From NCBI GenBank assembly GCA_045541535.1, contig JAZQJG010000034.1, positions 86,143 through 150,142 on the forward strand: DNA of 64,000 bases, given 5' to 3'. Within the stretch, counting starts at the first letter, position 1. Every line of letters begins with the position of its first letter. Made by a program: the position numbers and the translations under genes. Below are positions 6,354 through 64,000 of the stretch, piece by piece. The DNA is from Eubacteriales bacterium (lineage in GTDB: Bacteria > Bacillota > Clostridia > Oscillospirales > QAKW01). Under the pieces are notes generated by a model. The model was given only the letters and a program-made list of their open reading frames with translations. It made no database searches and had not been told where the DNA came from.

Positions 6354-7193
6354 TCACTCTACCCCCTTAAACAAATTGCAGGTATTTTCGTGGGCTTTTC
6401 TTTCAAAATCGTGATACATAGAAGACCGCGCCATCGCTTCGTCGAAATCTACCTGATGACCATCAAATTCAGGGCCGTCAACACAGGCAAATTTCGTCTC
6501 ACCACCGACACTCAAACGACAACCTCCACACATACCCGTGCCATCAATCATAATAGGATTCATAGAAACAACAGTCTTAACACCGTATTCCTTAGTCAGT
6601 GCAGATACAAATTTCATCATAGGCAAAGGTCCGATGGCGATCACTTCATCAAACTGTTCACCGTCATCAAGTTGTTTACGCAAAGCATCGGTAACAAAGC
6701 CACGCTCACCGGCACTACCGTCATCCGTCATTAAAGTAAAATGATCACAAGAAGCCGTAAATTCATCCTGTAATATCACAAGGTTTTTGTTGCGGAAACC
6801 GACAATGCCGTGCACGCAAATGCCGCATTCGTGCATTTTTTTGGCCACAGGATATGCAATGGCGCAACCAACACCGCCGCCGATGACGGCAACCTTTTTG
6901 AGATTATCCATTTCCGTTGGCTTGCCGAGCGGCCCGACAAAATCACACAGACGATCGCCCTGACGCATATGATTCAATTTTTCCGTTGTCCCGCCAACCA
7001 CCTGAAATATGATCGTAACCGTACCACGTTCAGCATCATAATCGGCGATGGTGAGCGGAATCCGTTCACCGTCAGCATCTGTGCGCAGAATCACAAACTG
7101 ACCGGGACGGGCCTTTTTGGCAATCAACGGCGCATCAATTTCCATCAGAGTGACGGTGGGATTCAGTTCTTTTTTCAACAAAATTTCAAACAC
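6354..7193 (-). CDS. nfnA: PyrK-like FAD/[2Fe-2S] electron-transfer subunit, NfnA/SudB-type
   Basis: C-terminal motif MCGGCRLSVGGETKFACVDGPEF. The likely start is the GTG at 7193, preceded by GAGGAA. It ends 1 nt upstream of nfnB. Confidence 0.8.
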   Translation of the reverse strand: MFEILLKKELNPTVTLMEIDAPLIAKKARPGQFVILRTDADGERIPLTIADYDAERGTVTIIFQVVGGTTEKLNHMRQGDRLCDFVGPLGKPTEMDNLKKVAVIGGGVGCAIAYPVAKKMHECGICVHGIVGFRNKNLVILQDEFTASCDHFTLMTDDGSAGERGFVTDALRKQLDDGEQFDEVIAIGPLPMMKFVSALTKEYGVKTVVSMNPIMIDGTGMCGGCRLSVGGETKFACVDGPEFDGHQVDFDEAMARSSMYHDFERKAHENTCNLFKGVE

Positions 7194-7331
7194 AAATATT
7201 CCTCGTTTCTTTTGCAAAACTATGTTTGACAAACGTAAACTACATATTACATATTGTAACACTATTTTATAAAAAAGCAAGAAAAAAGACTATCACAAAA
7301 CGCACTTACTTTTGTGCTATTTTAACAAATG

Positions 7332-7360
7332 AAAAAAGACATCCCGAAGGATGTCTTTTT
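7332..7360 (-). terminator. Intrinsic terminator after the tRNA-Leu pair
   Basis: AAAAAAGACATCC-CGAA-GGATGTCTTTTTT lies directly after the tRNA 3' end. Confidence 0.8.
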
Positions 7361-7448
7361 TGGTGCGGGTAAGAGGACTTGAACCTCCACCGGTGCAATA
7401 CCGACTAGAACCTGAATCTAGCGCGTCTGCCAATTCCGCCATACCCGC
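7361..7448 (-). tRNA. tRNA-Leu (anticodon CAG), CCA encoded
   Basis: The reverse complement reads GCGGGTATGGCGGAATTGGCAGACGCGCTAGATTCAGGTTCTAG...GGTTCAAGTCCTCTTACCCGCACCA. It has anticodon loop TTCAGGT and a long variable arm. Confidence 0.9.
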
Positions 7449-7453
7449 ATGTA

Positions 7454-7540
7454 TGGTGCAGACGGCGGGACTTGAACCCGCATCCCATCGCTGGGACTAC
7501 CACCTCAAAGTAGCGTGTATGCCAATTTCACCACGTCTGC
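7454..7540 (-). tRNA. tRNA-Leu (anticodon GAG), CCA encoded
   Basis: The reverse complement reads GCAGACGTGGTGAAATTGGCATACACGCTACTTTGAGGTGGTAG...GGTTCAAGTCCCGCCGTCTGCACCA. It has anticodon loop TTGAGGT and a long variable arm. Confidence 0.9.
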
Positions 7541-7572
7541 ATATCCACACGCTGCTCATCAGCGCAGGATTT

Positions 7573-7601
7573 ATTATAACAAGCAAACTCTTAAAAGTCA
7601 A
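7573..7601 (-). promoter_or_regulatory. Sigma-A-type promoter for the tRNA-Leu pair
   Basis: TTGACT-17 nt-TATAAT on the minus strand, about 30 nt upstream of the first tRNA. Confidence 0.6.
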
Positions 7602-7635
7602 GTGTTTTTTTAAATAAATATCAACTTTTTCAAAG

Positions 7636-7668
7636 ATTTAAAAGGAAAGACGGTGAGAACACCGTCTT
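7636..7668 (-). terminator. Probable terminator after the SLH surface protein gene
   Basis: AAGACGGTG-AGAA-CACCGTCTT hairpin followed by a T-rich tract on the minus strand. Confidence 0.55.
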
Positions 7669-7688
7669 GCCTTTTGGATTTGTTAATC

Positions 7689-10220
7689 TTATGCGGCGTG
7701 ATTATAAATAATCACAGCAACGTCTGCGCGGATGATGCTATCCTTGGGGTTGAAGTTTTTGCCATCACCCTGAATCAAGCGATAGTAGTTAGCAAGCTTG
7801 ATGGACTTGAGGGCCCAGGAGCTGATCTCCTTAGCATCGGCATATTTACCTTTAAATGCACTCTCAATCGCATCGGCTTCTGCTTTATACATCTTGTTTA
7901 CGGTAGTTTTATCAGCCGCAGCAATACTACGCAGGAAAACAGCGGTAAATTGCTCTCTGGTAGTGGTGGAGGAGCCTGCAAAATACAGATTTCCATTGTC
8001 AGAAATACCGGAAATCAAGCCGGCAGCAGTGGCCGTGCGGATGTAAGGCAATGCCCAGGGAGCTTCGCTCTGCATCTCAAAGAAATCATCATAGATTTCA
8101 TGCAGCTTAACGCCGTCAGCCATATCAACGTTCAAACCGCTCAAAGTAACCATTACCTTGGCCAATTCGTATCTGGTGATGTTGGCAGTGGCATTAACTC
8201 TCTTATTCTGGTCACCCACAAAAATGCCATAACCTTCATTATTTAAATAGTTTACGGCTTTGCGAGCATAAGCAGGGACACCGGCGAGATCGGAATAAAT
8301 CACAGCGTCACGATCGGAAACAACCGTTACGGGAATAGCCGCAGACTTCTCACCGTTTTCAGCAGTAACCTGAATGTAGAAGTAGTTGTACTTGGATTCC
8401 AGATCCACCTTGGTGGTGCTGGGTGCTTCGTACTTGCAAGCGGGATCCAAATAGAATTTGTAAGTAGCCTTGGTGTCAACGTTAACACTGGGCTTGATGG
8501 ACTTAACGCCGGCAGGCATCTCAACGTAATAACCGCCGTCTGCTTCAGTCAGAAACTCGGCGCCGGGCACGCCAAACAGGTGCAGCTTACAGTCGTTGGA
8601 GCCGCCAGACTCCTCAACGCCGTCTACAGGGAATGCAAAGATGCTGACATCATAATACTCAGTGGTGCTACCGTTGGTGGCAACCAGATATGCAGTAGTA
8701 ATATTCTCCTCTTTATTCAGAGAAATCTTGGAAATGAGCTTGCTCTGGGTATTGTCGGTATAAATCTTAACGGTAGTGCCACTCTTGGCAGTCATATTGG
8801 TCTCGGGTGAGAAGGTGTAAGTGCCGGATTCTTTGTCGGCAGGATAGATGTACAGACGTCTGGTATTATTATATTTCAATACCTCTCCGTCGTTCCATGC
8901 GGTAATCAAGTTGGGCGTGCTGTCCTGCAAGATCGCAGAAGTGGAAGAGAAGCTCATTGCAGCACCCTTACCATCGTAGAATTTATTTGTAGAATCAAAA
9001 TAGTACGGATAGGAAGAACTACTGGAAAGCGGAGTTTTATAACCCTCGAAACGGTTTCCGCTAATCTCCATATGCGTGTAAGAAGGCGTTCCGCCGACAC
9101 CGTCATAGTAAGTACCAAAGGCAGGAGAGCCGTCACCCGTAGACATAACGAAGAGATTGTCTTTACAAGTAAACTCTTGATTATGATAGGAGATCTGGTC
9201 CTGAATAGTTCTGTTACCAACAGCGGTAGCAACATTTATAAAATCATTACCAATCATTTCAAGGATAACGCGGGAACGCATCTGAATGCCAGCAACACCG
9301 CTCTCACGAGCAGCAAAGTTGATGGAGTTGATGCCGCCGAAATCCTCAAAGTGATTATAGAGGTATCTACGAGCAAGCGCCTTATCGGGAGCCAAAGAAT
9401 TAGAGGGAGAAATACCACCAAGATATTCAATAAGACTGTTGGTATTTTTGTCGGCGCCGGATTTCATATGAGCAACATAACTGTTTTGGATCGTAACGCT
9501 CTCGGCCTTTGTATTATGGAATCTGGAAACAGCGTCGTTTTTGTCTGCACGGATGCTATCAATCGTGACGTAACGATTGATAGTGTCAGTGTTCATCAGA
9601 AAATATGAATCGCAAGAACTGTCTTTAAAAAACAGATTCTTGAAAGTATAGTTAACGATGATTTTTTCCGCAGCACGGGTGGTGTCCTTGATTCTACCGG
9701 AGCCGGTGAAGGCAATACCGTCAATGACAACGTTATTACAGCCGGTACCGATCAAGATGTCCGTGGTGAAGACGGCTTCCTTAGTGGGATCCAGGCTTCT
9801 GTTGTTCTTAAGCGCCCATTTTTCCATAGAAGGATCATAATCGTCCAAATAGGGACTGTTATTGGGGTTTTTGCCGAAATACGGTCCGCAAAGGTTGATA
9901 TCACTGCTCAAAGTGATGGGATCGCTGTAAGTACCGGGAGCCAAAACCACCGTTCTTTCAACGCCTTCGGGCAACCAAGCGGCAGAAGCAGCCTCTACAG
10001 TCGCAAAAGCATTTAAACCAAACTCAAGCTGATACAGTTCGCCGCCCAACTCATAGTCAAACTGCTCCTGCAACGTAAGACCGGTCCAATCGTCGTTTAC
10101 AACCAGATAACCCTCAGGCAACGCAGAGTATACCGGGGCTGCAAAAACGAAGCAGGACATTGTGGACAGCACCAACAAAACTGCAATTGTCAGCGCCAAG
10201 ATCTTTCTACCTCTTTGCAT
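7689..10220 (-). CDS. Large secreted cell-surface protein: signal peptide, beta-helix-like repeat region, Ig/cadherin-like modules, three C-terminal SLH domains
   Basis: N-terminal signal peptide (ILALTIAVLLVLSTMSCFVFAAP). Parallel beta-helix-type segments are present (NNVVIDGIAFTGSGRI...). The SLH repeats are at the C-terminus (PAYARKAVNYLNNEGY, EAPWALPYIRTATAAGLISG, ISSWALKSIKLANYYRLIQG). Confidence 0.8.
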   Translation of the reverse strand: MQRGRKILALTIAVLLVLSTMSCFVFAAPVYSALPEGYLVVNDDWTGLTLQEQFDYELGGELYQLEFGLNAFATVEAASAAWLPEGVERTVVLAPGTYSDPITLSSDINLCGPYFGKNPNNSPYLDDYDPSMEKWALKNNRSLDPTKEAVFTTDILIGTGCNNVVIDGIAFTGSGRIKDTTRAAEKIIVNYTFKNLFFKDSSCDSYFLMNTDTINRYVTIDSIRADKNDAVSRFHNTKAESVTIQNSYVAHMKSGADKNTNSLIEYLGGISPSNSLAPDKALARRYLYNHFEDFGGINSINFAARESGVAGIQMRSRVILEMIGNDFINVATAVGNRTIQDQISYHNQEFTCKDNLFVMSTGDGSPAFGTYYDGVGGTPSYTHMEISGNRFEGYKTPLSSSSSYPYYFDSTNKFYDGKGAAMSFSSTSAILQDSTPNLITAWNDGEVLKYNNTRRLYIYPADKESGTYTFSPETNMTAKSGTTVKIYTDNTQSKLISKISLNKEENITTAYLVATNGSTTEYYDVSIFAFPVDGVEESGGSNDCKLHLFGVPGAEFLTEADGGYYVEMPAGVKSIKPSVNVDTKATYKFYLDPACKYEAPSTTKVDLESKYNYFYIQVTAENGEKSAAIPVTVVSDRDAVIYSDLAGVPAYARKAVNYLNNEGYGIFVGDQNKRVNATANITRYELAKVMVTLSGLNVDMADGVKLHEIYDDFFEMQSEAPWALPYIRTATAAGLISGISDNGNLYFAGSSTTTREQFTAVFLRSIAAADKTTVNKMYKAEADAIESAFKGKYADAKEISSWALKSIKLANYYRLIQGDGKNFNPKDSIIRADVAVIIYNHAA

Positions 10221-14421: not shown

Positions 14422-14513
14422 TGGCGGAGAGAGAGGGATTCGAACCCTCGAGACGCTATCAACGCCTACACGATTTCCAATCGTGCGCCTTCGGCCATCT
14501 CAGCCATCTCTCC
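14422..14513 (-). tRNA. tRNA-Ser (anticodon GGA), CCA encoded
   Basis: The reverse complement reads GGAGAGATGGCTGAGATGGCCGAAGGCGCACGATTGGAAATCGTG...GGTTCGAATCCCTCTCTCTCCGCCA. It has anticodon loop TTGGAAA and a long variable arm. Confidence 0.9.
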
Positions 14514-16930: not shown

Positions 16931-18694
16931 TTATACTCGGTCTTTGATTTCGGTGGTGATTTTTTCCAGGAAGGCCTCTAAAGACATAGTCTCCGTTTTA
17001 GCGGTGTCACGGTTACGGACGGCAACCGTTCCTTCCTCCACTTCCTTCTGGCCGATGACCAGCATATACGGTACACGGTCAACCATCTGCGCCTCTCGGA
17101 TCAGATAACCGATCTTCTCATTACGATCATCAAGCTCGCAACGGATACCGGCAGCACGAAGGGCTTCGTACACCTTTTTGCCGTATTCGGCGCTCTTTTC
17201 AGAAACCAACAATACTTTAACCTGAGTTGGAGCAAGCCATGCGGGGAACTTACCGGCAAAGTGTTCGGTGAGAACACCGATAAATCTCTCAATGGAGCCA
17301 AAGCATACTCTGTGGATCATAATAGGACGTTGCTTTTCGCCCTTTTCATCAATATACTCAAGTTCAAAATTGATGGGCATCTGGAAGTCAAGCTGAATGG
17401 TACCGCACTGCCAGGTTCTGCCGATGGAGTCCTCCAGATGGAAGTCAATCTTAGGACCGTAAAATGCACCGTCGCCCTCGTTGACGATATAATTGAGGCC
17501 CAATTTATCCAGCGCATCCTTCAGACCGTTGGTTGCGGCCTCCCAATCCTCGTCACTGCCCATACTGTCCTCCGGACGGGTGGAAAGCTCAACAAAATAT
17601 TTAAATCCGAACTTTTCATACACTTCGTTGATCATATGAACAACGTTCATAATCTCGTCGGTAATCTGCTCTTTACGCATAAAGATATGAGCATCGTCTT
17701 GGGTAAAGCAACGCACACGGAACAGACCGTGCAGAGCGCCCTTCAGTTCGTGACGATGAACCAGACCCAACTCGCCCACACGCATCGGAAGATCACGGTA
17801 GCTGTGCGGCTGATTGCGATATACAAGAACACCACCGGGGCAGTTCATAGGCTTTACGCAGAAAATGTCTTCGTCGATACTGGTGGAATACATGTTGTCT
17901 TTATAATGATCCCAATGTCCACTGGTTTCCCACAGATGACGATTCATAATCAAAGGAGTAGAAACCTCCAGATAATTCTCTCTGGTATGGATCTCTCTCC
18001 AATAATCAATCAAGGCATTCTTCAGCGCCATACCCTTGGGCAGGAAGAAAGGAAAACCGGGGGCTTCTTCATTCATCATAAACAAGCCCATTTCTTTGCC
18101 AATACGACGGTGATCACGCTTTTCTGCCTCTTCCAGCAGTTTCAGATATGCTTCCAGTTCCTCGTTGTTGCGGAAAGCAATACCCTTCACGCGGGTCAGC
18201 ATCTTATTATCCTTGTCATTTTTCCAGTAAGCGCCGCTTTGCGCCATGATTTTAAATGCCTTGAGCGCCTTGGTATAGCACAGATGAGGGCCGACACACA
18301 TATCAATATAGTCCCCCTGCTGGTAGAAGCTGATGGGGGCATCCTCCGCCAGATCACCAATATGCTCCACCTTATAGATCTCGCCACGGTCAGCCATCAA
18401 TTTGATGGCTTCGTCTCTGGGCAAAATATAGGGTTTGATGGGTAAGTTTTCTTTAACGATCTTACGCATCTCCTGTTCAATCGCCTGCAGATCCTCATCC
18501 GTAAGCTTATCATCTCCCAGGTCCACGTCATAATAAAAACCATTGTCCGTGGCAGGACCATAGGCGAAATGAGCGTGGGGATACAGACGCTGAATCGCCT
18601 GTGCCATAATATGAGCCGCCGAATGGCGAATCACGTGCAGTTCTTCTGCTTCAGGACACTGAACGACGCTGCCGTCATTGTGAATAACTTTCAT
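16931..18694 (-). CDS. thrS: Threonyl-tRNA synthetase (short form, N-terminal TGS domain essentially absent)
   Basis: Editing-domain motif IRHSAAHIMAQAI appears by residue 22. Class II core motifs are present (FRVRCFTQDDAHIF, GAFYGPKIDF), as is an anticodon-binding domain. A Thr T-box lies upstream. Confidence 0.95.
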   Translation of the reverse strand: MKVIHNDGSVVQCPEAEELHVIRHSAAHIMAQAIQRLYPHAHFAYGPATDNGFYYDVDLGDDKLTDEDLQAIEQEMRKIVKENLPIKPYILPRDEAIKLMADRGEIYKVEHIGDLAEDAPISFYQQGDYIDMCVGPHLCYTKALKAFKIMAQSGAYWKNDKDNKMLTRVKGIAFRNNEELEAYLKLLEEAEKRDHRRIGKEMGLFMMNEEAPGFPFFLPKGMALKNALIDYWREIHTRENYLEVSTPLIMNRHLWETSGHWDHYKDNMYSTSIDEDIFCVKPMNCPGGVLVYRNQPHSYRDLPMRVGELGLVHRHELKGALHGLFRVRCFTQDDAHIFMRKEQITDEIMNVVHMINEVYEKFGFKYFVELSTRPEDSMGSDEDWEAATNGLKDALDKLGLNYIVNEGDGAFYGPKIDFHLEDSIGRTWQCGTIQLDFQMPINFELEYIDEKGEKQRPIMIHRVCFGSIERFIGVLTEHFAGKFPAWLAPTQVKVLLVSEKSAEYGKKVYEALRAAGIRCELDDRNEKIGYLIREAQMVDRVPYMLVIGQKEVEEGTVAVRNRDTAKTETMSLEAFLEKITTEIKDRV

Positions 18695-18725: not shown

Positions 18726-18945
18726 AAAAACACCCCTGGCAACTCACGTTGCCAAGGGTGCGATTGCACGGTTCCACCTTGGGTTTCACTCTTACTTCTT
18801 TAACGCAGAAATACGTTATCGCTTACTGCAGTTTCGGCGATACAGCTCAGGAATGGTCTTCATCGGTTTGCTTTCGGAAGGCTTACAGCCAACGACCTCC
18901 CTCTCTGTAGAAAACGCACTCGATTACTCTTTCCGTCTTTGCTTT
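18726..18945 (-). promoter_or_regulatory. T-box leader, specifier ACC (Thr), with terminator
   Basis: On the minus strand the leader reads AGACGGAAAGAGTA...CAGAGAGG...GAAG-ACC-A-TTCCTGAGCT. The T-box core is AACCCAAGGTGGAACCGTG. The terminator is CACCCTTGGCAAC...GTTGCCAGGGGTG followed by TTTTT. The ACC specifier is at 18855-18857. Confidence 0.85.
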
Positions 18946-18951
18946 TATTTG

Positions 18952-27597: not shown

Positions 27598-27875
27598 ATA
27601 AAATGCACTCATCCCAAAGATAACTTTGAGACGAGTGCCGAAATATCGTTTCACCCGCGGTACCACTCAAATTGCAGTATTAAACCGCCACTCAGGATCC
27701 AACAATCCTTTAGCATTTACGCAGCCATCACGAGAAGATTCTACTCACGCCAAGAGCGCTTTCTTTCTTCCGGCTCGGAAGCTACAAATACAAAAGTCTT
27801 TTAATGGCTTGCACCTGCCGCCATCTCTCTGAAAAAAGAGTTCTTGTACCCTCTTCGTCATAGCCTTTATAATTT
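27598..27875 (-). promoter_or_regulatory. T-box leader, specifier GUA (Val), with terminator
   Basis: On the minus strand the leader reads GGCTATGACGAAGAGGGTA...CAGAGAGATGGCGGCAGGTGCAAGCC...TTT-GTA-G-CTTCCGAGCC. The T-box core is AATTTGAGTGGTACCGCGGGTG. The terminator is GCACTCGTC...GATGAGTGC followed by ATTTTATTT. The GTA specifier is at 27783-27785. Confidence 0.85.
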
Positions 27876-55396: not shown

Positions 55397-55521
55397 ACCC
55401 TTTGTTATTGCAAAAGCAAAAGGAGGATCAACACGAATTTCATAAGCAAATCAATAAACTTGCACTTTAATGCACGTAGAGACTGCTGCGATTCGGGTTA
55501 CCTCCCATATCTTGTTTATAT

Positions 55522-55550
55522 ATTTTACTATATATTATTATAACTGTCAA
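55522..55550 (-). promoter_or_regulatory. Candidate sigma-A promoter of the polysaccharide locus (about 120-nt leader)
   Basis: TTGACA-17 nt-TAAAAT on the minus strand. Confidence 0.5.
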
Positions 55551-55561
55551 GTTAACAAGTA

Positions 55562-55605
55562 AAAATAGTATAACCCCGCCGAGACTGTGCTCGGCGGGGT
55601 TATAC
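55562..55605 (-). terminator. Intrinsic terminator after the C_GCAxxG_C_C gene
   Basis: Perfect 16-bp inverted repeat GTATAACCCCGCCGAG/CTCGGCGGGGTTATAC plus a T-run on the minus strand. Confidence 0.8.
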
Positions 55606-56051
55606 TAATTTTCAGCTATCATTTGATCCAACAAAACTGCAGCATATTCAACGAATACGGCGCACGGACGTTCTTTGTAAAACTTTTCATCTCTGGGGGT
55701 TGGTTTTGCGCCCGGGGTGGTTTTGAGTCCCGAAAGCAATTCCCTGCAACAAATAGTACCAAACTTTTCTTTAAAATCAGCGGCAAGTTTTTGAATGCGG
55801 GCATAATGCTCGGTGATTACACCTTTATCGCCGATATCGCTATATCCCCACAGGTAACCGGCTACCAGAAACATACCGGTTACGGCACCGCAGGTTTCCC
55901 GCATTCTACCCATACCACCACCAAAAGAGGAGGACAATTTAAGGCAGGTTTCCTTGTCCAATCCCATCTCATCCCGAAAGGCAGTGAATACTGCTTGAGC
56001 ACAGTTATAACCGGAGCAAAATAACTCCCTTGCTTCTTTGATATGATCCAT
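55605..56051 (-). CDS. C_GCAxxG_C_C-family putative redox protein
   Basis: Motifs GYNCAQAV, CGAVTG and TICCRELL. Confidence 0.85.
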   Translation of the reverse strand: MDHIKEARELFCSGYNCAQAVFTAFRDEMGLDKETCLKLSSSFGGGMGRMRETCGAVTGMFLVAGYLWGYSDIGDKGVITEHYARIQKLAADFKEKFGTICCRELLSGLKTTPGAKPTPRDEKFYKERPCAVFVEYAAVLLDQMIAEN

Positions 56052-56065
56052 ACTTTTCTCCTTTA

Positions 56066-56863
56066 TCAGTCCACATTTAAACCTTTTTTAAGCAGTACTC
56101 CACCCACGATCAAGCCGATGATCAGCAGTGCGCTGTACGCAACATTTCCGCCAATCATCAAGGCAGGAAACACGTCAAAATTCTGGGGTGCATTCTGTCC
56201 GAAAAGTTCCAAAACTTCCCTTGAAAACGGAAAGGCGACAACGATCGTCAAAACGAACGCAATCCCTTGGGACACAAAGTATACAAGGATTCCAAACAAA
56301 AACGAAAGTCCCACTTTGCCACGGTTAAAACAATGACCGATAATCGTGCCGATATATCCGCATTGCACCATACTCATCAGCTCCACAAACACCAGAAAAA
56401 TTAGTAAAAAAACCATTACAGGTATGCTCACTTTCATTGCCTGGGAAACAGGGATGAGCATGTTTTTGAGCAACGCATAATTCTCCTTGGAATAAAATGC
56501 AATTACAATTGAAAGACACACCACGGCAAAGCTGGTGATCAGTGAGAGCATACCTGCCACAAACTTAGATACGTAATGGCTATGGCGCTTTACGGGCAAA
56601 GTATGAGTGAGATAGCTTTCATCGCCAAACAGATTGTGCCGAAAGCGGATCCAGCAATGAATTACGTTATTGATCAACGTGGAAAACAACGCAGAAATCG
56701 TGGCGCCACTGCAAATTTTCCCAATGATATTCAGTATAAAAATCTCGTCAAAACAACCGAATAATCGGGTCAACATCGCCAATCCAAGAGTGATAATATA
56801 GTACACGATCAGTGATTTGCTGAGCAAAAACCGCAGATCGTAATGAATCAATTTTTTCAGCAT
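56066..56863 (-). CDS. ABC-2-type transporter permease (six TM, uncharacterised)
   Basis: Hydrophobic 265-aa protein, translationally coupled to the upstream ABC ATPase by a 7-nt overlap. Confidence 0.7.
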   Translation of the reverse strand: MLKKLIHYDLRFLLSKSLIVYYIITLGLAMLTRLFGCFDEIFILNIIGKICSGATISALFSTLINNVIHCWIRFRHNLFGDESYLTHTLPVKRHSHYVSKFVAGMLSLITSFAVVCLSIVIAFYSKENYALLKNMLIPVSQAMKVSIPVMVFLLIFLVFVELMSMVQCGYIGTIIGHCFNRGKVGLSFLFGILVYFVSQGIAFVLTIVVAFPFSREVLELFGQNAPQNFDVFPALMIGGNVAYSALLIIGLIVGGVLLKKGLNVD

Positions 56864-57552
56864 CGAAACATCCTCCTGAAAATCTCGTCAATTGAAGCAT
56901 TCTCTCTAGTGCGCAGTTCGTCGGTTGACGAAGCCAGCACCACCTGTCCCTGATCAATAAAAATCACGTCATCCAAAATTTGCTCCACATCAGAGATCAG
57001 ATGAGTAGAAATCAGAACCGAAGCTCCCTCGTCAAAATTGGACAAAATCGTATCCAAGATATAATCCCTGGTAGCAGGATCCACACCACCCAGCGGTTCG
57101 TCCAAAATATAGAGTTTTGCCTTTCGGCTCATCACCAAAACAAGTTGTAGCTTTTCCTGCATACCCTTACTCATTTTGGATATTTTTTGTTCTTCCGACA
57201 ATCCGAGATCCTGTAGCAAACGCTTGGCACGCTCAATCTCAAAATCCTCATAGAACTGTTCAAAATATTTCAGCACAGCCGAAACTTGCATATTCTTATC
57301 CAGATACGTACGCTCCGGCAGGTAGGAAATCAACCGTTTACTCTCCACACCAATGCTCTGTCCATTCACTGAAATCATACCGCTATCAGGGGTCAGCAGA
57401 TCGTTTATCAGCTTGATCAACGTGGATTTTCCTGCACCGTTTTTACCGAGAAGTCCCACAATGCGACCGGCGCCGATCTGAAACGAAACATCCCTTAAAA
57501 TATATTGTCCGTCAAACTTTTTACTGACGTTTTTGCATTCCAGCAAACTCAT
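56857..57552 (-). CDS. ABC transporter ATP-binding protein
   Basis: Walker A GKNGAGKST, signature MSKGMQEKL and Walker B LYILDEPLGGVD. Confidence 0.9.
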   Translation of the reverse strand: MSLLECKNVSKKFDGQYILRDVSFQIGAGRIVGLLGKNGAGKSTLIKLINDLLTPDSGMISVNGQSIGVESKRLISYLPERTYLDKNMQVSAVLKYFEQFYEDFEIERAKRLLQDLGLSEEQKISKMSKGMQEKLQLVLVMSRKAKLYILDEPLGGVDPATRDYILDTILSNFDEGASVLISTHLISDVEQILDDVIFIDQGQVVLASSTDELRTRENASIDEIFRRMFRC

Positions 57553-57917
57553 TTATACTCTCCTCCCATTCCTTGAATCAAAGCAATTGTTTTTTCGGTA
57601 TCATAGCCAATGTTCTTCATATCCGACAAAAAACGCTGACCAATACGCTGGGCATATTCCGCACGAAAATCGGCAATCTTTTGGGTATCCTCACTGACGA
57701 ATTTTCCGTTGGTGCGCTCCGTATAGATCAAACCGACACGTTCAAGTTCCAGCATTGCTTTTTGTACGGTATTCGGATTGACCTTGGTTTGTAACGCCAA
57801 TTCCCGCACCGATGGCAAGCGTTCCCCCGGAGTAAGTACGCCGGAAATAATATATACCCTCAGTTGATCAACAAGCTGAATATAAATCGGCGTATTATTA
57901 TCAAACGAAAACCTCAC
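57549..57917 (-). CDS. GntR-family (YtrA-subfamily) transcriptional regulator
   Basis: The wHTH is LPSVRELALQTKVNPNTVQKAMLELE, followed by a short C-terminal domain. The start is the GTG at 57917, 5 nt after GGAGGT. Confidence 0.88.
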   Translation of the reverse strand: MRFSFDNNTPIYIQLVDQLRVYIISGVLTPGERLPSVRELALQTKVNPNTVQKAMLELERVGLIYTERTNGKFVSEDTQKIADFRAEYAQRIGQRFLSDMKNIGYDTEKTIALIQGMGGEYK

Positions 57918-57929
57918 TACGCACCTCCA

Positions 57930-57951
57930 TTGTATTACTTGGCTAATACAA
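57930..57951. promoter_or_regulatory. Candidate YtrA-type operator
   Basis: Perfect inverted repeat TTGTATTA-N6-TAATACAA lies between the -10 element and the RBS of the GntR gene. Confidence 0.6.
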
Positions 57952-57979
57952 TAATACACCATACCAATCATTTTGTCAA
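57951..57979 (-). promoter_or_regulatory. Sigma-A-type promoter of the GntR-ABC operon
   Basis: TTGACA-17 nt-TATTAT on the minus strand. Confidence 0.55.
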
Positions 57980-57982
57980 TAG

Positions 57983-58015
57983 AAAAAAGAGGTTGTACAA
58001 AACAACCTCTTTTTT
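57983..58015 (-). terminator. Intrinsic terminator after the amidohydrolase gene
   Basis: AAAAAAGAGGTTGT-ACAAA-ACAACCTCTTTTTT. Confidence 0.8.
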
Positions 58016-58021
58016 GATCCG

Positions 58022-58840
58022 TTAAAATTGCCGTTTGATGCCGTAAACTTTACAAACGTTTTCACACAAAATCATTCGTTTTTCATCTGCCGTTAACGGT
58101 AGAGCGGCAAAACGATCCAATTCTGCGGCAGAGGACCACAACGGATAATCGGTACCGAACAGAACTCTGTCGGCCCCAAAAGCGTGAATCATTTGCACCA
58201 CGGAAGCTGCATCCCGATACATCATCGTAGACGAACAATCCACACATAAATTGGGGCAATCGACCAACTTTTCCGTTGCTTCCTCCCATACCGACCAACC
58301 GGCAAAGTGGGCACCCACCATTGTAAGGCCCGGAAATTCCCGCAAGACGCGCAAAACACGGTCGGGATTGGAATTATCATAACGATAGTCCCCCGTATGC
58401 ACCAGAAGGGGTAATTTTTCCTTCTGGCAAAGTTCATAGATCCGCATACAACGCTCGTCATCCATTTTAAAGTTCTGGATATCAGGGTGCAATTTCACCC
58501 CGTGAAGCCCCAACTCCACCAGATGATGCACATCTCCCCGCTGATCTTCGCCATCCGGATGCAGGGTACCCAAACCAATCAAACGGTCGGGGTGCGCGGA
58601 AACGGAAGCAGCAATAAATTCATTGATGCTTTTAACCTGATGCGGGGTGGTTGCAACCGACTGTACCACAAAACGGTCAATACCGGCGGCAATTCCTTCG
58701 GAAAGCATTGCCTCCACCGTACCGTCGGCGTAGGGCTCTTCTCCATAAAAATCGCCGGTGCTTTTGGCCGCACGGGCGGCAATCTTTTCGGGATAGATAT
58801 GGCAATGGGCATCAATTACCAAATACTGATTTTCAAGCAT
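58022..58840 (-). CDS. Amidohydrolase-2-family TIM-barrel metal-dependent hydrolase
   Basis: Motifs IDAHCHI, HGVKLHP and FGTDYP; 272 aa. It is the last gene of the Leu T-box operon. Confidence 0.8.
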   Translation of the reverse strand: MLENQYLVIDAHCHIYPEKIAARAAKSTGDFYGEEPYADGTVEAMLSEGIAAGIDRFVVQSVATTPHQVKSINEFIAASVSAHPDRLIGLGTLHPDGEDQRGDVHHLVELGLHGVKLHPDIQNFKMDDERCMRIYELCQKEKLPLLVHTGDYRYDNSNPDRVLRVLREFPGLTMVGAHFAGWSVWEEATEKLVDCPNLCVDCSSTMMYRDAASVVQMIHAFGADRVLFGTDYPLWSSAAELDRFAALPLTADEKRMILCENVCKVYGIKRQF

Positions 58841-58849
58841 TTGACTCCC

Positions 58850-61354
58850 CTATCCTTCCAGACCCAGCTTGCGGGCGGCATCCTCACGCATTTTATATTT
58901 CAAAATCTTGCCGGCCGCATTCATCGGGAAGGCGTCCACGAAATCAATATAACGGGGCACTTTATGACGAGCCATATTTTCATTGATGTATTGCTTCATC
59001 TCGTCCTCGGTCATGCTCTCCCCTTCTTTGAGAATAATACAAGCCATAATCTCCTCGCCGTACCGTTTGTCTGGCACACCGATAACTTGTACGTCACGTA
59101 CCTTGGGATGAGTATAAATAAACTCTTCGATTTCTTTAGGATAGATGTTTTCGCCGCCGCGGATGATCATATCCTTCAGACGGCCGGTAATGAGATAATT
59201 TCCCTCGGGCGTGCGGCAGGCAAGGTCGCCGGTGTGTAACCAACCGTCCTTATCAATGGCGGCCGCAGTAGCCTTGGGCATTTTGTAATAACCCTTCATA
59301 ATGTTATAGCCGCGCGCAACGAATTCACCGTTCACGCCGTCAGGGCAATCCTCGCCCGTCTCAGGATCAACGATCTTACATTCAACGTTAGCAAAGGCAC
59401 TGCCTACCGTTTCGGTGCGCACCTCCAGAGAATCATAATAACTACTCATAGTACAACCCGGAGAGGCCTCGGTCTGACCGTAAACTGACACGATTTCCCG
59501 CATATTCATAACGTCCGGCTGAGCGGCTTTTTTCATCAGATCGGCAGGACAGTTGGCACCCGCCATAATGCCGGTGCGAATATAGGAAAAGTCGGTCTTC
59601 TCAAAATCAGGATGCTGCATCATCGCAATAAACATAGTGGGCACACCGTTAAAACAGGTGATGTGCTCGTTATGAACGCAGGACAGCGCAGGCTTGGGTG
59701 AAAAGTAAGGAATGGGATACATCGTGGTGCCGTGAGTCATAGAAGCGGTCATAGAGAGAACCATACCGAAGCAATGGAACATGGGCACCTGAATCATCAT
59801 ACGGTCAGCCGTAGACAGATCCATATGATCACCGATATATTTACCGTTATTGACAACGTTATAATGCGTCAGCATAACGCCCTTGGGGAAGCCGGTGGTG
59901 CCGGAGGTGTACTGCATATTGCAGACATCATCCTTATCCACGGCAGCCGCCATACGATATACCTCTTCCACAGGCACCTGAGAAGAGCGAGAAACCGCCT
60001 CCTCCCAAGTCATGCATCCCTTTTGCTTGAAACCAACGGTGATAACGTTTCTGAGGAAGGGCAAACGACGGCTGTGCAAAGGTTTGCCGGCTTTGATCTC
60101 CTCCAGTTCGGGGCAGAGCTTGGCAATGATCTCACCATAATGATTGTCCTTACCGCCCTCGGTGAGAATAAGGGTATGAGTGTCGGACTGGCGGAGCAAA
60201 TATTCCACCTCCGCAATTTTATAGGCAGTGTTAACGGTGACCAAAACGGCGCCGATCTTAACCGTTGCCCAGAAGGCAATATACCACTGAGGTACGTTAG
60301 AGGCCCAGACTGCTACGTGATGACCGGCTCTGACGCCCATATCAATCAGCGCTCTGGCAAAGGTATCCACGTCGTCACGGAATTCGCTGTAGGTACGGGT
60401 ATAATCCAGCGTGGTATATTTAAATGCGTACTGATCGGGAAATTCCTCCACCATACGGTCCAGCACCTGGGAGAACGTGAGATCAATTAAAAGATCCTTT
60501 TTCCAGATAAATTTGCCGGTATGGGCACGGTTATAATACAGGGTCTTTTCATTTTTGGAGGTATCGTTGAACTGTTTCATAAAGTTGACGTATTGAGAAA
60601 AAATGATCTCCATATCGTCCAGTTCTTCAGACCACTTAGGATCCCAAACCAAAGAAATAAAGCCATCGTAGTTTACGGAACGCAACGCCAGCATCATTTC
60701 TGCAATAGGCAGTTCTCCCTCGCCGGCCAGGCAAAATTCAACGCCATTCTCCGTTTTGACACCGTCACAGAAAAGAACGTGTTTTAAATATGCGCCCAGA
60801 TTCTGAATAATCTCCTCTGAGGATTCTCCTGCCCCAAAATAAGCGGCAGACATATTCCAAAGTGCCGCCAGATTGTCACAGGCAAAGCGATTGAGCATCT
60901 CCCGCAGATAAGCGGTGTTGCAGAAAATACCGGAAGTTTCAAGCAGAAAGGTGATTCCCTTCTCCTCGGCTTCAGGAAGTACCTCGGCGATACAGGCGGC
61001 AATGCCGTCCAAAGAACTCTCGTCTCCTGACATCGCCTTGATACGGACGTTGGGAATATGAAGATTGGCAGCTACCGCCATACAACGACGGATTTCATCC
61101 AAGGTTGCCTCTTTGGCGCTTTCCTCTGCCAGATCGCACAACGTGTCAATACAAGGAATCTGCAGTTTTTTCTCGTACAGACGACGCAGAGTGGCCGCCG
61201 CGGCGTAATCGTGAAAGGCGCCGCCACGGTCGGTAAACAAGCGGTTGTTGATATTGTGCAGTTCAATACCGGAAAAGCCCAGTTCTACTGCAATATCGCA
61301 AAATTCTTCAAAGGTATTGTGATGCCACCCACGGGTGGAAAAAGAGAGTTTCAT
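58850..61354 (-). CDS. Fusion protein: N-terminal xylose-isomerase-like TIM barrel + C-terminal AMP-forming acyl-CoA synthetase/ligase
   Basis: Residues ~1-270 are AP_endonuc_2-like (GFSGIELHN..., FLLETSG, ISLVWDPKW). Residues ~290-834 are ANL-type (YTSGTTGFPKGVMLTH, TGDLACRTPEGNYLITGRLKDMIIRGGENIYP, PMNAAGKILK). Confidence 0.85.
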   Translation of the reverse strand: MKLSFSTRGWHHNTFEEFCDIAVELGFSGIELHNINNRLFTDRGGAFHDYAAAATLRRLYEKKLQIPCIDTLCDLAEESAKEATLDEIRRCMAVAANLHIPNVRIKAMSGDESSLDGIAACIAEVLPEAEEKGITFLLETSGIFCNTAYLREMLNRFACDNLAALWNMSAAYFGAGESSEEIIQNLGAYLKHVLFCDGVKTENGVEFCLAGEGELPIAEMMLALRSVNYDGFISLVWDPKWSEELDDMEIIFSQYVNFMKQFNDTSKNEKTLYYNRAHTGKFIWKKDLLIDLTFSQVLDRMVEEFPDQYAFKYTTLDYTRTYSEFRDDVDTFARALIDMGVRAGHHVAVWASNVPQWYIAFWATVKIGAVLVTVNTAYKIAEVEYLLRQSDTHTLILTEGGKDNHYGEIIAKLCPELEEIKAGKPLHSRRLPFLRNVITVGFKQKGCMTWEEAVSRSSQVPVEEVYRMAAAVDKDDVCNMQYTSGTTGFPKGVMLTHYNVVNNGKYIGDHMDLSTADRMMIQVPMFHCFGMVLSMTASMTHGTTMYPIPYFSPKPALSCVHNEHITCFNGVPTMFIAMMQHPDFEKTDFSYIRTGIMAGANCPADLMKKAAQPDVMNMREIVSVYGQTEASPGCTMSSYYDSLEVRTETVGSAFANVECKIVDPETGEDCPDGVNGEFVARGYNIMKGYYKMPKATAAAIDKDGWLHTGDLACRTPEGNYLITGRLKDMIIRGGENIYPKEIEEFIYTHPKVRDVQVIGVPDKRYGEEIMACIILKEGESMTEDEMKQYINENMARHKVPRYIDFVDAFPMNAAGKILKYKMREDAARKLGLEG

Positions 61355-61356
61355 GC

Positions 61357-62736
61357 TTATGCCTCCTCGTATACGATCTTGTTGACGGCATTAATATAGG
61401 CGCGGATGCTGGCGCCGATAATATCAGTGGAAATACCGTTACCGGAATACAGCTTGCCGCCGGAACGCAGTTTGACGATGGCCGAGCCCATTGCTTCTTT
61501 ACCCTCGGTAACCGATTGAATCTGGAAATCATCCAGTTCATAGTGATAACCGATGATCTGATCAATGGCCAAAAAAGCGGCGTCAATGGGGCCGTCGCCA
61601 AGGCAAACGCCCTGCATCGGCACGTCGTTTTTACTCAGCGTAATCTGTGCGCTGGAAGAAATAATATTTCCGTTATTGATGATGTAATTTACAAGTTTAT
61701 AGGTAGCGGGCACCTGCAATGCAACGCTGGCGACAATAGCCTCCAGTTCTTTGGCGCCAACATTTTTGTTGGCGGCCACATTGCGAAATTCTTCATATAC
61801 CTTGGCCTGATCTTCCTCGGAAAGATCGTAGCCCAGCTTTGCCACCGCCGTAATGACTGCCGCCTGATCGTCGCCGGCATCCAGCCGTATACCGCTTTCA
61901 TCTGCCATAGCGACCGTGACGGCAGATTTTTCATTTTTAACGTTTTGCGCAATCCAACGGATTTGTTTTACTACACGGTGGAGTTCAGTGACACGGATAC
62001 GAGAAGCAAAACCGTAAGTATTGCCGCAGTTTTTGATCATATCGGTAAAGACCTCCAGATCCACTCCGGTGCCCTCTACACAGGCCTTAACGTCCGCCAC
62101 ACCGGCACGAACCGCCAAAATCACAGATGCACAGGCCAGACCGTTTTTATCTTCACAAGCCACCGCTACGGGTAAGTCGGTATATTCCACGATCTCACGT
62201 GCAAATGCCGCAAAGTCATCGGGCATCATTTCAGCCGCCGTATCACATACCGCTACGCAAGAGGCGCCGGCAGCCACAGCTGTTTCAATGGCCTGACGCA
62301 AAAAATCGCCCTCTGCACGGGTGGCGTCCTGCGCACAGAATTCAACCTTACCGCATTTCTCTTTGGCGGCAGAAACGGCCGTTTTGATCCACTCAAGCAT
62401 TTTATCGGGTTTACGATGGCTGATATATTCCATCCCCACGGGAGACATGGGAAGTTCAATACGAATACAAGCGTTTTCCGCATTACTCAGGGCCAAAGCG
62501 GCATTTTCAATACTCTCCATATTGCTGCCCGCCGCAACGCTGAGCGTCGCTTTTTTCACAAAAGAAGAAACGGTGCGCACAAACAGGATATCGGTTTTTG
62601 CATTGACGATTTCAGGAAGCTCGATCACATCCACGTTTAGCTTTTCCAACTGACGGGCAATCTCGATCTTTTCTTTAAAGCCGAAGACGCCGTCCTTACG
62701 GCAAAGTGTTGTGTCGGCAATTTTGATTTGTTTCAT
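61357..62736 (-). CDS. 2-isopropylmalate-synthase-like protein with degenerate catalytic motifs and an intact LeuA-type C-terminal regulatory domain
   Basis: HMGL-like barrel in which DTTLRDGEQ is replaced by DTTLCRKDG and HxH by AVACEDKNG. The C-terminal GDGPIDAAFLAI...GISTDIIGASIRAYINAVNKI matches the LeuA dimer/regulatory domain. Confidence 0.8.
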   Translation of the reverse strand: MKQIKIADTTLCRKDGVFGFKEKIEIARQLEKLNVDVIELPEIVNAKTDILFVRTVSSFVKKATLSVAAGSNMESIENAALALSNAENACIRIELPMSPVGMEYISHRKPDKMLEWIKTAVSAAKEKCGKVEFCAQDATRAEGDFLRQAIETAVAAGASCVAVCDTAAEMMPDDFAAFAREIVEYTDLPVAVACEDKNGLACASVILAVRAGVADVKACVEGTGVDLEVFTDMIKNCGNTYGFASRIRVTELHRVVKQIRWIAQNVKNEKSAVTVAMADESGIRLDAGDDQAAVITAVAKLGYDLSEEDQAKVYEEFRNVAANKNVGAKELEAIVASVALQVPATYKLVNYIINNGNIISSSAQITLSKNDVPMQGVCLGDGPIDAAFLAIDQIIGYHYELDDFQIQSVTEGKEAMGSAIVKLRSGGKLYSGNGISTDIIGASIRAYINAVNKIVYEEA

Positions 62737-62762
62737 AACAGTTCATCCTTTCATTGTGCCTT

Positions 62763-63052
62763 AAAAAATAAAAATCCCTGAGATCGGAAAAACACCGATC
62801 TCAGGGACGAAAAAACTCCGTGGTACCACCCTGTTTACCGCATAAAGCGATCACTCTTCCAGCTCTATCAAGCCGAATGCCGTGGTAACGGTGGCAAACC
62901 CGTGACCGCCTACAAGTAAAAGATTCAGCAGTCCGGCTCAGGAGTGAGACTTCTTTACTCGTTCACACTGCCTCACACCAACCGACAGCTCTCTGAAATG
63001 AATGGGAATAAAGAATAATTCCGTCATCGCCTTTAAAAGGTAGTTTTAAATT
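62763..63052 (-). promoter_or_regulatory. T-box leader, specifier CUC (Leu), with terminator
   Basis: On the minus strand the leader reads GGCGATGACGG...CAGAGAGCTGTCGGTTGGTGTGAGG...GAAGT-CTC-A-CTCCTGAGCC. The T-box core is AACAGGGTGGTACCACGG. The terminator is TCCCTGAGATCGG-7 nt-CCGATCTCAGGGA followed by TTTTTATTTTTT. The CTC specifier is at 62946-62948. Confidence 0.85.
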
Positions 63053-63059
63053 ATTATGG

Positions 63060-63088
63060 ATTATACCACAGCGTAGTTGCTTTGTCAA
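63060..63088 (-). promoter_or_regulatory. Consensus sigma-A promoter for the Leu T-box operon
   Basis: TTGACA-17 nt-TATAAT on the minus strand. Confidence 0.7.
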
Positions 63089-63098
63089 CAAAAATTTT

Positions 63099-64000
63099 TC
63101 AGTCCAGATGGTAAACCCAACCGAAGGCATCTTCCTTCTTGCCCCACTGGATACCGGTCAAGGTATCGTAGAGATGCTGAGTCACAGCGCCGATTTCACC
63201 ATTGTTGACGGTATACTTCTGATCCTTGTAACAAAGCTCGCCGATGGGAGAAATAACCGCAGCAGTGCCGCAACCCCAGGCTTCCTTCAGAGTGCCGTTT
63301 TCCATAGCCTCGGCCAGTTCGTCAATGCTCAGCAGTCTTTCACTGACTTTATAACCCTCCTTGCGCAGAACTTCCAAGCAGGACATTCTGGTAATACCGG
63401 GCAAAATGGAGCCGGAGAGCATGGGAGTAACGATCTCGTCACCGATGAGGAACATAACGTTCATAGCGCCAACCTCTTCGATGTACTTTCTTTCTACACC
63501 GTCCAGCCACAGAACCTGAGAATAGCCCTTCTGTGCGGCGCGCTCACCAGCACGGGTGGAAGCGGCATAGTTACCGCCACACTTGGCATATCCGGTACCG
63601 CCGCGAACAGCGCGAACGTCCTCGTCCTCAATCATAATCTTTACGGGATTGATACCCTCGGCATAGTAACTGCCAACGGGAGAAGCGATGATCACGAAGG
63701 TGGCGTTGTGCACGGTGTGCACGCCCAAAGATTCGTCGTTACCATACAGGAAGGGACGCAGATACAGCGAGGTACCCTCGGCAGAAGGAGTCCAATCCTG
63801 CTCACATTTTACAAACTCAGTCAGCGCTTCAAAAGCGATTTCCTCGGGAATTTCAGGTAGGCAGAGACGCTCGGCAGAGCGATTCATTCTACGGATGTTT
63901 TCCATAGGACGGAACATCTGTACCTTACCGTCCGCACGACGATAGGCCTTCAGGCCCTCAAAAATCTCAGCACCGTAATGAAGAACGGTGGAGGCAGGAT
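63099..64000 (-). CDS. ilvE: Branched-chain amino acid aminotransferase (5' end beyond window)
   Basis: The frame is open to the window edge (…HYGAEIFEGLKAYRRADGKVQMFRP…). Class IV aminotransferase motifs are present, including GGTGYAKCGGNYAAS. Confidence 0.92.
   Translation of the reverse strand, partial: PASTVLHYGAEIFEGLKAYRRADGKVQMFRPMENIRRMNRSAERLCLPEIPEEIAFEALTEFVKCEQDWTPSAEGTSLYLRPFLYGNDESLGVHTVHNATFVIIASPVGSYYAEGINPVKIMIEDEDVRAVRGGTGYAKCGGNYAASTRAGERAAQKGYSQVLWLDGVERKYIEEVGAMNVMFLIGDEIVTPMLSGSILPGITRMSCLEVLRKEGYKVSERLLSIDELAEAMENGTLKEAWGCGTAAVISPIGELCYKDQKYTVNNGEIGAVTQHLYDTLTGIQWGKKEDAFGWVYHLD

Follow-up and report, generated by a model that had tools for sequence, protein, structure and literature searches.

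A leucine T-box precedes an operon of a degenerate LeuA paralog, a TIM-barrel::acyl-CoA-ligase fusion and an amidohydrolase in Oscillospirales

We describe a T-box leader and the operon behind it in a 64,000-nucleotide stretch of an Oscillospirales contig (JAZQJG010000034.1, positions 86,143 to 150,142; hereafter the window). Judged by its sequence and predicted fold, the leader is a class I transcriptional T-box riboswitch for tRNA-Leu, with CUC as its specifier and tRNA-Leu(GAG) as its partner. The RNA is an ordinary T-box, a new member of a known family. The operon that it regulates, which encodes a degenerate paralog of LeuA (LeuAp), a fusion of a triosephosphate isomerase (TIM) barrel to an acyl-CoA ligase, and an amidohydrolase, is a new kind of T-box target. 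We propose, giving the idea an even chance of being right, that an isovalerate-CoA ligase is induced by uncharged tRNA-Leu and supplies the substrate for reductive carboxylation to 2-ketoisocaproate, from which leucine is made, and that the dead LeuA may sense leucine.

Results

A complete leader with a CUC specifier

All features of the T-box operon lie on the minus strand, and coordinates are positions within the 64-kb window. The elements of the leader and its candidate tRNA partners are as follows.

63088..63060 (minus strand): sigma-70 promoter, with TTGACA at 63088..63083, a 17-nt spacer and a TG-extended TATAAT at 63065..63060; 12/12 match to consensus
63036..62800 (minus strand): T-box leader, Rfam RF00230, 118.3 bits against a gathering score of 93, E 1.4e-25, model positions 1-219/219
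62948..62946 (minus strand): specifier codon CUC, from the covariance-model alignment GAAGu-CUC-A-CUCC, with the 3′ purine A at 62945
62832..62819 (minus strand): T-box sequence AGGGUGGUACCACG, from the covariance-model alignment, with the bulge UGGU at 62828..62825
62808..62763 (minus strand): intrinsic terminator, made up of a 14-bp hairpin (62808..62774, -26.4 kcal/mol) and a U-run that reaches 62763
7454..7540 (minus strand): tRNA-Leu(GAG), found by ARAGORN and Rfam tRNA; discriminator A, CCA encoded
7361..7448 (minus strand): tRNA-Leu(CAG), found by ARAGORN and read in the sequence; ends in ACCA

A sequence-only reading of the window had called a consensus promoter (TTGACA-17-TATAAT) followed by a complete T-box leader, and both are present. 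The -35 box lies 11 nt past the stop codon of the upstream gene, ilvE, and no second 12/12 sigma-70 match occurs in the 8.6 kb scanned (55400-64000). The leader contains Stem I (kink-turn, specifier loop, AGAGA bulge and distal loop), Stem II, Stem IIA/B, Stem III and the antiterminator. All of the Stem I hallmarks can be read, namely the GAUGA...UGAGC kink-turn, GAAGU-CUC-A, CAGAGAG and GGUUGGUG; in the S-turn of the specifier loop, the 5′ half departs from the usual AGUA (it reads UUAU), and the alignment is less certain there. The leader folds with a minimum free energy z-score of -4.0. Folding of the terminator and antiterminator alternatives, which had been put forward as a check along with the earlier reading, gave -26.4 kcal/mol for the terminator and -9.0 kcal/mol for the antiterminator segment. 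The 5′ arm of the terminator and the 3′ arm of the antiterminator overlap, with CCCU common to both, such that the two structures are mutually exclusive.

The anticodon of tRNA-Leu(GAG) is the exact Watson-Crick partner of the CUC specifier, and the UGGU bulge is complementary to the ACCA end of both tRNA-Leu genes in the window. On each of these points the earlier reading holds. The covariance-model alignment places the same triplet in the specifier position, the bulge is UGGU and would pair with a discriminator A, and ARAGORN and the sequence agree that both tRNA-Leu genes end in ACCA and that the second carries anticodon GAG.

The leader is conserved with the operon

We scanned one genome per species. 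LeuAp is encoded in at least 592 species genomes, and the neighborhood analyses below cover the best 80 of these, all of which are metagenome-assembled genomes of Oscillospirales (Acutalibacteraceae, Ruminococcus and Oscillospiraceae) from gut and rumen. Individual loci are designated by L numbers. Usable upstream sequence was available for 78 loci, and in 73 of these the T-box motif GGGUGGUACC(G/A)CG lies at most 450 nt upstream of LeuAp. The LeuAp and TIM::ligase genes are adjacent in essentially every locus of sufficient length. When 13 orthologous leaders were tested against Rfam, all 13 exceeded the gathering score (98-130 bits). RNAalifold, applied to 14 orthologous leaders, predicted 68 pairs, 42 of which show compensatory changes, those of the terminator included.

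Specifiers were counted by a strict regular-expression parse combined with reading by eye, as a looser pass overcounted CUG through false downstream matches. Among 69 parsed leaders, CUC was found in 63, CUG in 5 and an apparent UUC in one (L009); the last is a mis-hit that reads CUC by eye. Three leaders that fell outside the parse all have CUC, and two more distant orthologs, fetched separately, have CUU (L081) and CUC (L082). The specifier is a leucine codon (CUC, CUG or CUU) in every ortholog read, and the UGGU bulge is present in 69/69 parsed leaders. Since the 4-bp helix adjoining the specifier covaries among orthologs (GGAA/UUCC, GAAA/UUUU, GGAG/CUCC), the register in which the specifier is read is fixed.

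Could the T-box be a relic of a decayed T-box-leuA operon, with downstream genes that are unrelated to leucine? A T-box before leuA is a common arrangement, in Firmicutes and also outside them (PMC2494555), and the first gene of this operon is a degenerate leuA. However, the 13 tested leaders all score above threshold, the leaders carry compensatory changes and synonymous specifier switches between CUC, CUG and CUU, and the open reading frames behind them are intact and strongly constrained in hundreds of species. Because of the compensatory changes, the synonymous switches and the strong protein constraint, a relic is the least tenable of the explanations that we weighed, and we give it almost no credence.

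A three-gene operon

The genes downstream of the leader, together with the gene upstream, are as follows.

62736..61357 (minus strand): LeuAp, 459 aa, Pfam PF00682 (HMGL-like) and PF08502 (LeuA_dimer); ATG at 62736
61354..58850 (minus strand): fusion protein, 834 aa, Pfam PF01261, PF00501 and PF13193
58840..58022 (minus strand): Amidohydro_2 hydrolase, 272 aa, Pfam PF04909, 126.9 bits against a cutoff of 26.4, profile positions 1-289/289
63099..64000 (minus strand): 3′ part of ilvE (branched-chain amino-acid aminotransferase), NF009897, 370.9 bits against a cutoff of 307; runs off the window edge

The operon runs from the LeuA paralog to the TIM::ligase fusion and then to Amidohydro_2, with gaps of 2 nt (stop to start) and 9 nt. 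A separate, near-consensus promoter (57979..57951, minus strand; TTGACA, 17-nt spacer, TATTAT) directly behind the amidohydrolase gene serves the genes for a GntR-family regulator and an ABC transporter, and as these have their own promoter, the T-box operon consists of three genes. Between the T-box operon and this next unit (57549-57979, minus strand, promoter included) there is no terminator, and read-through is possible.

The sequence-only reading had described the controlled genes as a degenerate LeuA paralog, a TIM-barrel::acyl-CoA-ligase fusion and an amidohydrolase, and the domains and lost LeuA motifs detailed below bear this out. Its statement that the operon contains no recognizable leucine-biosynthesis enzyme stands for the canonical pathway. 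It is limited to that pathway, as the ligase belongs to a family from operons of leucine and isovalerate catabolism, and genes for a 2-oxoacid:ferredoxin oxidoreductase and IlvE adjoin the operon in relatives.

LeuAp lacks the LeuA catalytic motifs

LeuAp, which is labeled "hypothetical protein" in the sources that name it, scores below the cutoffs of the LeuA equivalogs (269 bits against 532 for NF002086, its best; 232 bits against 599 for TIGR00973). In an alignment to solved LeuA structures, the DTTLRDGEQ motif has become ADTTLC--RKDG. The HxH metal site is AxE (VACEDKNG) and the HESGIHQD of subdomain I reads ADESGIRLD. Relatives of LeuAp as low as 47% in identity are equally degenerate at the LeuA catalytic sites, and because these sites vary within the family, no new conserved site has formed at the lost motifs.

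The regulatory domain matches PF08502 with 99.9 bits over profile positions 3-130/131. This C-terminal domain is the most conserved part of the protein, with 36% invariant columns in the family versus 20% in the barrel, and GDGPIDA and the C-terminal STDIIGASIRAYINAVNK are conserved. On this evidence LeuAp is, as far as sequence can tell, not an enzyme, and it appears to keep a leucine-binding regulatory domain in conserved form. By analogy with HisZ (see Discussion), it is most likely a leucine-sensing partner that would shut the ligase down once leucine returns.

One alternative is that LeuAp is an enzyme with new chemistry, for example one that condenses the acyl-CoA from the ligase with an aldehyde acid or 2-oxo acid. 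Isovaleryl-CoA and glyoxylate would in this way give 3-isopropylmalate, bypassing LeuA and LeuCD. The barrel fold is kept in an AlphaFold2 model of full-length LeuAp (predicted local distance difference test score, pLDDT, ~90), E39 and D137-A-T-R140 of the barrel are invariant, and the LeuAp and ligase genes are tightly coupled by their 2-nt gap. Yet LeuAp keeps none of the three catalytic or metal-binding motifs known from DRE-TIM Claisen condensing enzymes, the residues in their place vary across the family, and no leuB occurs in the 80 neighborhoods. We therefore regard this alternative as highly improbable.

The fusion protein carries an intact ligase and a variable TIM barrel

Residues 1-285 of the fusion protein form a xylose-isomerase-like TIM barrel, and residues 286-834 make up a PRK12583-family acyl-CoA ligase. 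The ligase domain scores 302 bits with PF00501 (AMP-binding) and 70 bits with PF13193 (AMP-binding_C). The ANL motifs YTSGTTGFPKG, YGQTE, GWLHTGD, GRLKDMIIRGGENIYP and AGKILK are present and vary little or not at all in 66 species; the ANL core set A3, A5, A7, A8 and the A10 lysine can all be read. Across the same 66 species, 55% of columns are invariant in the ligase domain, whose identity is 79-97% among the species compared, versus 22% in the TIM domain.

The TIM domain matches PF01261 with 70.8 bits (cutoff 31.1) and is modeled by AlphaFold2 with a pLDDT of 89.9. Its best Foldseek matches, with TM-scores of ~0.75, are SCO6571, AsbF and ketose 3-epimerases. As these are generic xylose-isomerase-like barrels at 12-20% identity, they support no functional assignment. 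This TIM barrel is found almost exclusively fused to the ligase described here. The wider family has the metal-ligand motifs KHVHxxD and SLEWDP, whereas the window protein and its close relatives have KHVLFCD and SLVWDP (residues 192-197 and 234-239). Two putative metal ligands thus appear to be lost in the clade of the window, and the barrel itself may be decaying.

The amidohydrolase has an HxH metal motif that reads DAHCH. It was detected in ~55 of the 80 related loci; apart from ~7 loci taken up below, the misses are at contig ends.

It is also possible that the operon handles another leucine-related compound. The TIM barrel and the hydrolase would produce or free an acid, with a lactone, an amide or a keto-acid conjugate as conceivable sources, and the ligase would activate this acid; isovalerate would then not be the physiological substrate. 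This would account for a barrel that is almost exclusively fused to the ligase and whose wider family keeps both metal-ligand motifs, and for the co-transcription of Amidohydro_2 in most loci. AsbF, which makes the acid that AsbC adenylates in petrobactin synthesis, is a PF01261 barrel and is among the top structural matches of the TIM domain. However, the clade of the window is without two of the metal-ligand positions, only 22% of the columns of the TIM domain are invariant, against 55% for the ligase, ~7 of the 80 loci have several kb downstream of the ligase with no amidohydrolase match, and in L081 the amidohydrolase is on the opposite strand. Weighing these points, we consider this alternative unlikely, while giving it some weight.

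Relatives of the ligase occur in leucine and isovalerate operons

A tblastn search of annotated records with the ligase domain gave closest relatives that share 43-51% identity with it along the full length. We inspected the contexts of homologs in eight records, seven of them annotated and the eighth (Acinetobacter) without annotation. The homolog lies inside a leucine/isovalerate catabolic operon in three of the seven annotated records, at 43-48% identity. In Bacillus amyloliquefaciens (48% identity) the operon encodes an acyl-CoA dehydrogenase, an AMP-binding protein, biotin carboxylase, biotin carboxyl carrier protein, 3-hydroxy-3-methylglutaryl-CoA (HMG-CoA) lyase, enoyl-CoA hydratase and a carboxyltransferase, which is the yngJIHGFE arrangement. 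In Paracoccus yeei and Methylobacterium the contexts are liu operons, with isovaleryl-CoA dehydrogenase, subunits of methylcrotonyl-CoA carboxylase (MCC), HMG-CoA lyase, a hydratase and the AMP-binding protein. These three homologs pass the NF009233 cutoff (832-865 bits). No liu genes were present in the contexts from Priestia, Brevibacillus and Rhodococcus. Since these make up three of the seven annotated contexts, the association of the ligase relatives with liu genes is frequent and not universal. In Pseudomonas putida, randomly barcoded transposon sequencing led to the suggestion that PP_4063, a ligase adjacent to ivd, or PP_4549 attaches CoA to isovalerate (bioRxiv 10.1101/2020.07.04.188060).

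A sugar-phosphate isomerase gene adjoins the Paracoccus homolog; it is convergent and belongs to a different operon, and we rejected it as a meaningful TIM-ligase association. In addition, records NZ_CP077849.1 and NZ_CP154897.1 are labeled "plasmid" and yet are clearly chromosomal, one being a 3.66-Mb A. baumannii sequence and the other a B. amyloliquefaciens sequence with yng and bio operons; such labels are not to be trusted as they stand.

A 2-oxoacid oxidoreductase and IlvE adjoin the operon in relatives

Directly upstream of the T-box, ~20-30 of the 80 loci share an order of genes for an MbcS-like AMP-forming ligase, a CbiA-like ATPase, the alpha, beta and gamma subunits of a VorB-type 2-oxoacid:ferredoxin oxidoreductase (VOR), and IlvE. 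The VorB-type alpha subunit scores 537 bits with NF005507 (cutoff 399). The closest relative of the window (L001) carries the full VOR-IlvE order, and its IlvE and ligase are 96% and 97% identical to those of the window. In the distant L081, whose TIM domain is 44% identical, genes for VOR delta, alpha, beta and gamma and for two MbcS-like ligases are divergently adjacent. No canonical leu or ilv genes, leuB included, are among the recurring neighbors in the 80 loci, a statement that applies to the neighborhoods. Likewise, no Rfam elements, T-boxes included, were found before the ligase-VOR-ilvE genes in 13 loci, most of which are cut inside the first gene.

Several features of these neighborhoods are worth recording. 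The MbcS-like synthetases that head the VOR-ilvE cluster are ~755-aa fusions with an N-terminal XRE-type helix-turn-helix and a cupin domain (the cut first gene of many loci, L001, L010 and L038 among them), and L081 has two such paralogs in tandem (3105-7789, minus strand). The helix-turn-helix and cupin look like a DNA-binding sensor module. The CbiA/ParA-type P-loop ATPase-like protein, of ~221 aa, is conserved between the MbcS-like ligase and VorB (L001-L080; in L081 at 2388-3056) and has no NCBIfam match. In one clade (L041, L050, L066-L068, L070-L079), genes for a MetY-like O-acetylhomoserine sulfhydrylase and a MetA-like homoserine O-acyltransferase were seen, by eye only, past the amidohydrolase.

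The 2-oxoacid:ferredoxin oxidoreductases are reversible, and AMP-forming ligases run towards the acyl-CoA. On this enzymology, and on the classical labelling work in the rumen, a ligase, VOR and IlvE together are the gene set expected for conversion of branched-chain fatty acids to branched-chain amino acids. The MbcS of Staphylococcus aureus activates isobutyrate and 2-methylbutyrate and uses isovalerate poorly (PMC10026030), which leaves room for a separate isovalerate ligase. Because the T-box ligase belongs to a family from liu and yng operons, and because VOR and IlvE adjoin it in relatives, the operon is likely tied to leucine through isovalerate.

The same ligase activity would fit a second outcome, in which isovaleryl-CoA primes iso-odd branched-chain fatty acids, so that external isovalerate is scavenged when leucine, the usual source of isovaleryl-CoA, is scarce and leucine is spared for translation. 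Such a role is compatible with the link between the ligase family and isovalerate and with the activating direction, the only one in which an AMP-forming ligase works. MbcS provides a precedent for the scavenging of branched acids as lipid primers (PMC10026030). However, T-boxes normally restore tRNA charging, the conserved neighbors are VOR and IlvE, enzymes towards leucine, and not FabH or lipid genes, and the leucine-binding domain of LeuAp would fit feedback on a leucine-producing route better. A role in lipid priming is, in our judgment, quite unlikely.

Other RNA elements

Two further T-boxes lie in the window.

18751-18948 (minus strand): thrS T-box, specifier ACC (Thr), 103.9 bits, upstream of a 587-aa open reading frame (16931..18694), presumed thrS
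27624-27870 (minus strand): valS T-box, specifier GUA, 91.0 bits, slightly below the gathering score of 93, model positions 1-219

These are the thrS and valS leaders that the sequence-only reading had used for comparison, and both exist as it described. The valS leader looks complete, yet default Rfam annotation would skip it. A Gut-1 RNA (RF01706; 14318-14387, minus strand) scores 54.5 bits against a gathering score of 50 and lies directly downstream of tRNA-Ser(GGA) (14422-14513). Among the related loci, L038 (10746-10859, plus strand) has an Rfam match to STnc490, an enterobacterial Hfq-binding small RNA, with 68 bits against a gathering score of 56. L038 is from a Firmicute metagenome-assembled genome, and the match is probably an unrelated or mobile-element sequence.

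Discussion

If the T-box controls leucine supply, how might the operon contribute? We propose that when leucine is scarce, uncharged tRNA-Leu(GAG) would dock on Stem I by codon-anticodon pairing with CUC, and pairing of its free ACCA end with the UGGU bulge would stabilize the antiterminator. RNA polymerase would then read past the terminator at 62808..62763 into the three-gene operon. The fusion ligase would activate isovalerate, or a very similar branched C5/C6 acid, to the CoA thioester. Isovaleryl-CoA would next become 2-ketoisocaproate through reductive carboxylation by a VorB-type 2-oxoacid:ferredoxin oxidoreductase, and from this IlvE would form leucine by transamination. LeuAp may sense the leucine produced and restrain the ligase, in analogy with HisZ. 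The anatomy of the RNA and its leucine specificity, the make-up of the operon, its conservation, the lost LeuA motifs, the family of the ligase and the gene neighborhoods are read from sequence, whereas the substrate of the ligase, the anabolic direction and the parts played by LeuAp, the TIM domain and the hydrolase are inferred. A fuller version would hold that Oscillospirales make leucine from isovalerate with a dedicated module under two-layer control, in which a leucine T-box and a HisZ-like dead LeuA gate a TIM-fused isovalerate-CoA ligase and the neighboring VOR and IlvE complete the route; to this version as a whole we attach tentative belief, and rather little of it.

Several observations weigh against this model. 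The best NCBIfam match of the fusion protein, NF009233 (PRK12583), scores 655 bits, below the cutoff of 832, making the ligase a diverged relative and not a certified member of the family. The ligases of liu operons could themselves activate another acid of the pathway, such as acetoacetate, instead of isovalerate. The VOR genes lie outside the window and are placed by synteny, they are adjacent in well under half of the 80 loci, and a second clade has metY and metA downstream in place of the upstream VOR-ilvE genes. In the AlphaFold2 model of LeuAp the regulatory domain has a pLDDT below 50; because of this low confidence, leucine binding is deduced from the amino acid sequence alone, and a search of PDB sequences with the regulatory domain gave no usable match. 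Finally, neither the fused TIM barrel nor the amidohydrolase has a part in the mechanism as we propose it.

As a regulatory RNA, the leader closely resembles the T-boxes found in Bacillus subtilis at the ilv-leu operon and at leuS, with which it shares RF00230, a CUC specifier, tRNA-Leu(GAG), UGGU/ACCA pairing and the terminator/antiterminator logic. The CUC triplet makes regulation depend on leucine in the work of Marta et al. (1996), as cited in PMC2494555. The difference lies in the targets, which here include neither a synthetase nor a transporter nor a canonical ilv/leu enzyme. Targets outside the canon have been seen before: Wels et al. (2008) reported that for 8% of T-boxes the genes that follow have no known function or one that seems unrelated. 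There is also precedent for T-box control of a regulatory protein, in B. subtilis rtpA (PMC2494555).

The ligase is collinear over its full length with those of the liu and yngJIHGFE operons (B. subtilis YngI-like, P. putida PP_4063), with 43-48% identity and NF009233 as the best family for both. It differs in being fused to a TIM barrel, in its predicted induction by leucine starvation, in having no ivd, MCC or HMG-CoA lyase neighbors, and in its score (655 versus 832 bits). Given that VOR and IlvE are the neighbors of the window-type ligase, its direction would be opposite to that of the liu and yng pathways, namely anabolic. S. aureus MbcS is likewise an AMP-forming ligase that scavenges exogenous branched-chain acids, and MbcS-like genes are part of the adjacent VOR-ilvE cluster. 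However, MbcS belongs to another ANL subfamily than the T-box ligase, is poor with isovalerate and feeds lipid synthesis (PMC10026030).

For LeuAp, the closest parallel is HisZ, a dead paralog of histidyl-tRNA synthetase that serves as the histidine-sensing subunit of the short-form ATP phosphoribosyltransferase (PMC9734150). In both cases catalysis is lost, ligand binding is kept (in LeuAp, as predicted) and the gene is encoded with that for the first enzyme of the pathway. The two belong to different protein families, and whereas the function of HisZ was proven biochemically, the role that we suggest for LeuAp draws on motif loss, domain conservation and gene adjacency.

The proposed route from acyl-CoA to 2-oxo acid to amino acid is that of the anabolic 2-oxoisovalerate:ferredoxin oxidoreductases and of the long-known isovalerate-to-leucine pathway in ruminococci, and VorB-type genes adjoin ilvE in relatives of the window. 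Allison and Bryant are said to have described the classical reductive carboxylation of isovalerate to leucine by rumen bacteria in the 1960s. In a literature search, neither a gene for the activation step nor a regulatory RNA turned up that had been tied to this physiology. The same search returned nothing that describes this T-box operon, LeuA paralogs without activity, or ruminococcal genes for the conversion of isovalerate to leucine.

The leucine specifier is a built-in functional label on a widespread uncharacterized operon, and the interest of the system lies in the breadth of its conservation and in a specific pathway hypothesis that is open to testing. If the proposal is correct, a classical anaerobic route to branched-chain amino acids that is genetically unresolved would have genes for its activation step. 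The T-box regulon would gain a new class of targets, and LeuAp would join the enzyme paralogs that have been put to new use in ligand sensing. Automated metabolic reconstructions may take LeuAp for isopropylmalate synthase, an error that would be put right. The cross-feeding of branched-chain fatty acids in gut and rumen would be explained, and on the fuller version the need of ruminococci for branched-chain volatile fatty acids, observed 60 years ago, would acquire its missing basis at the level of genes and their regulation. For gut and rumen Clostridia, the operon is a strong lead to a leucine-related pathway that is widespread and has gone unannotated.

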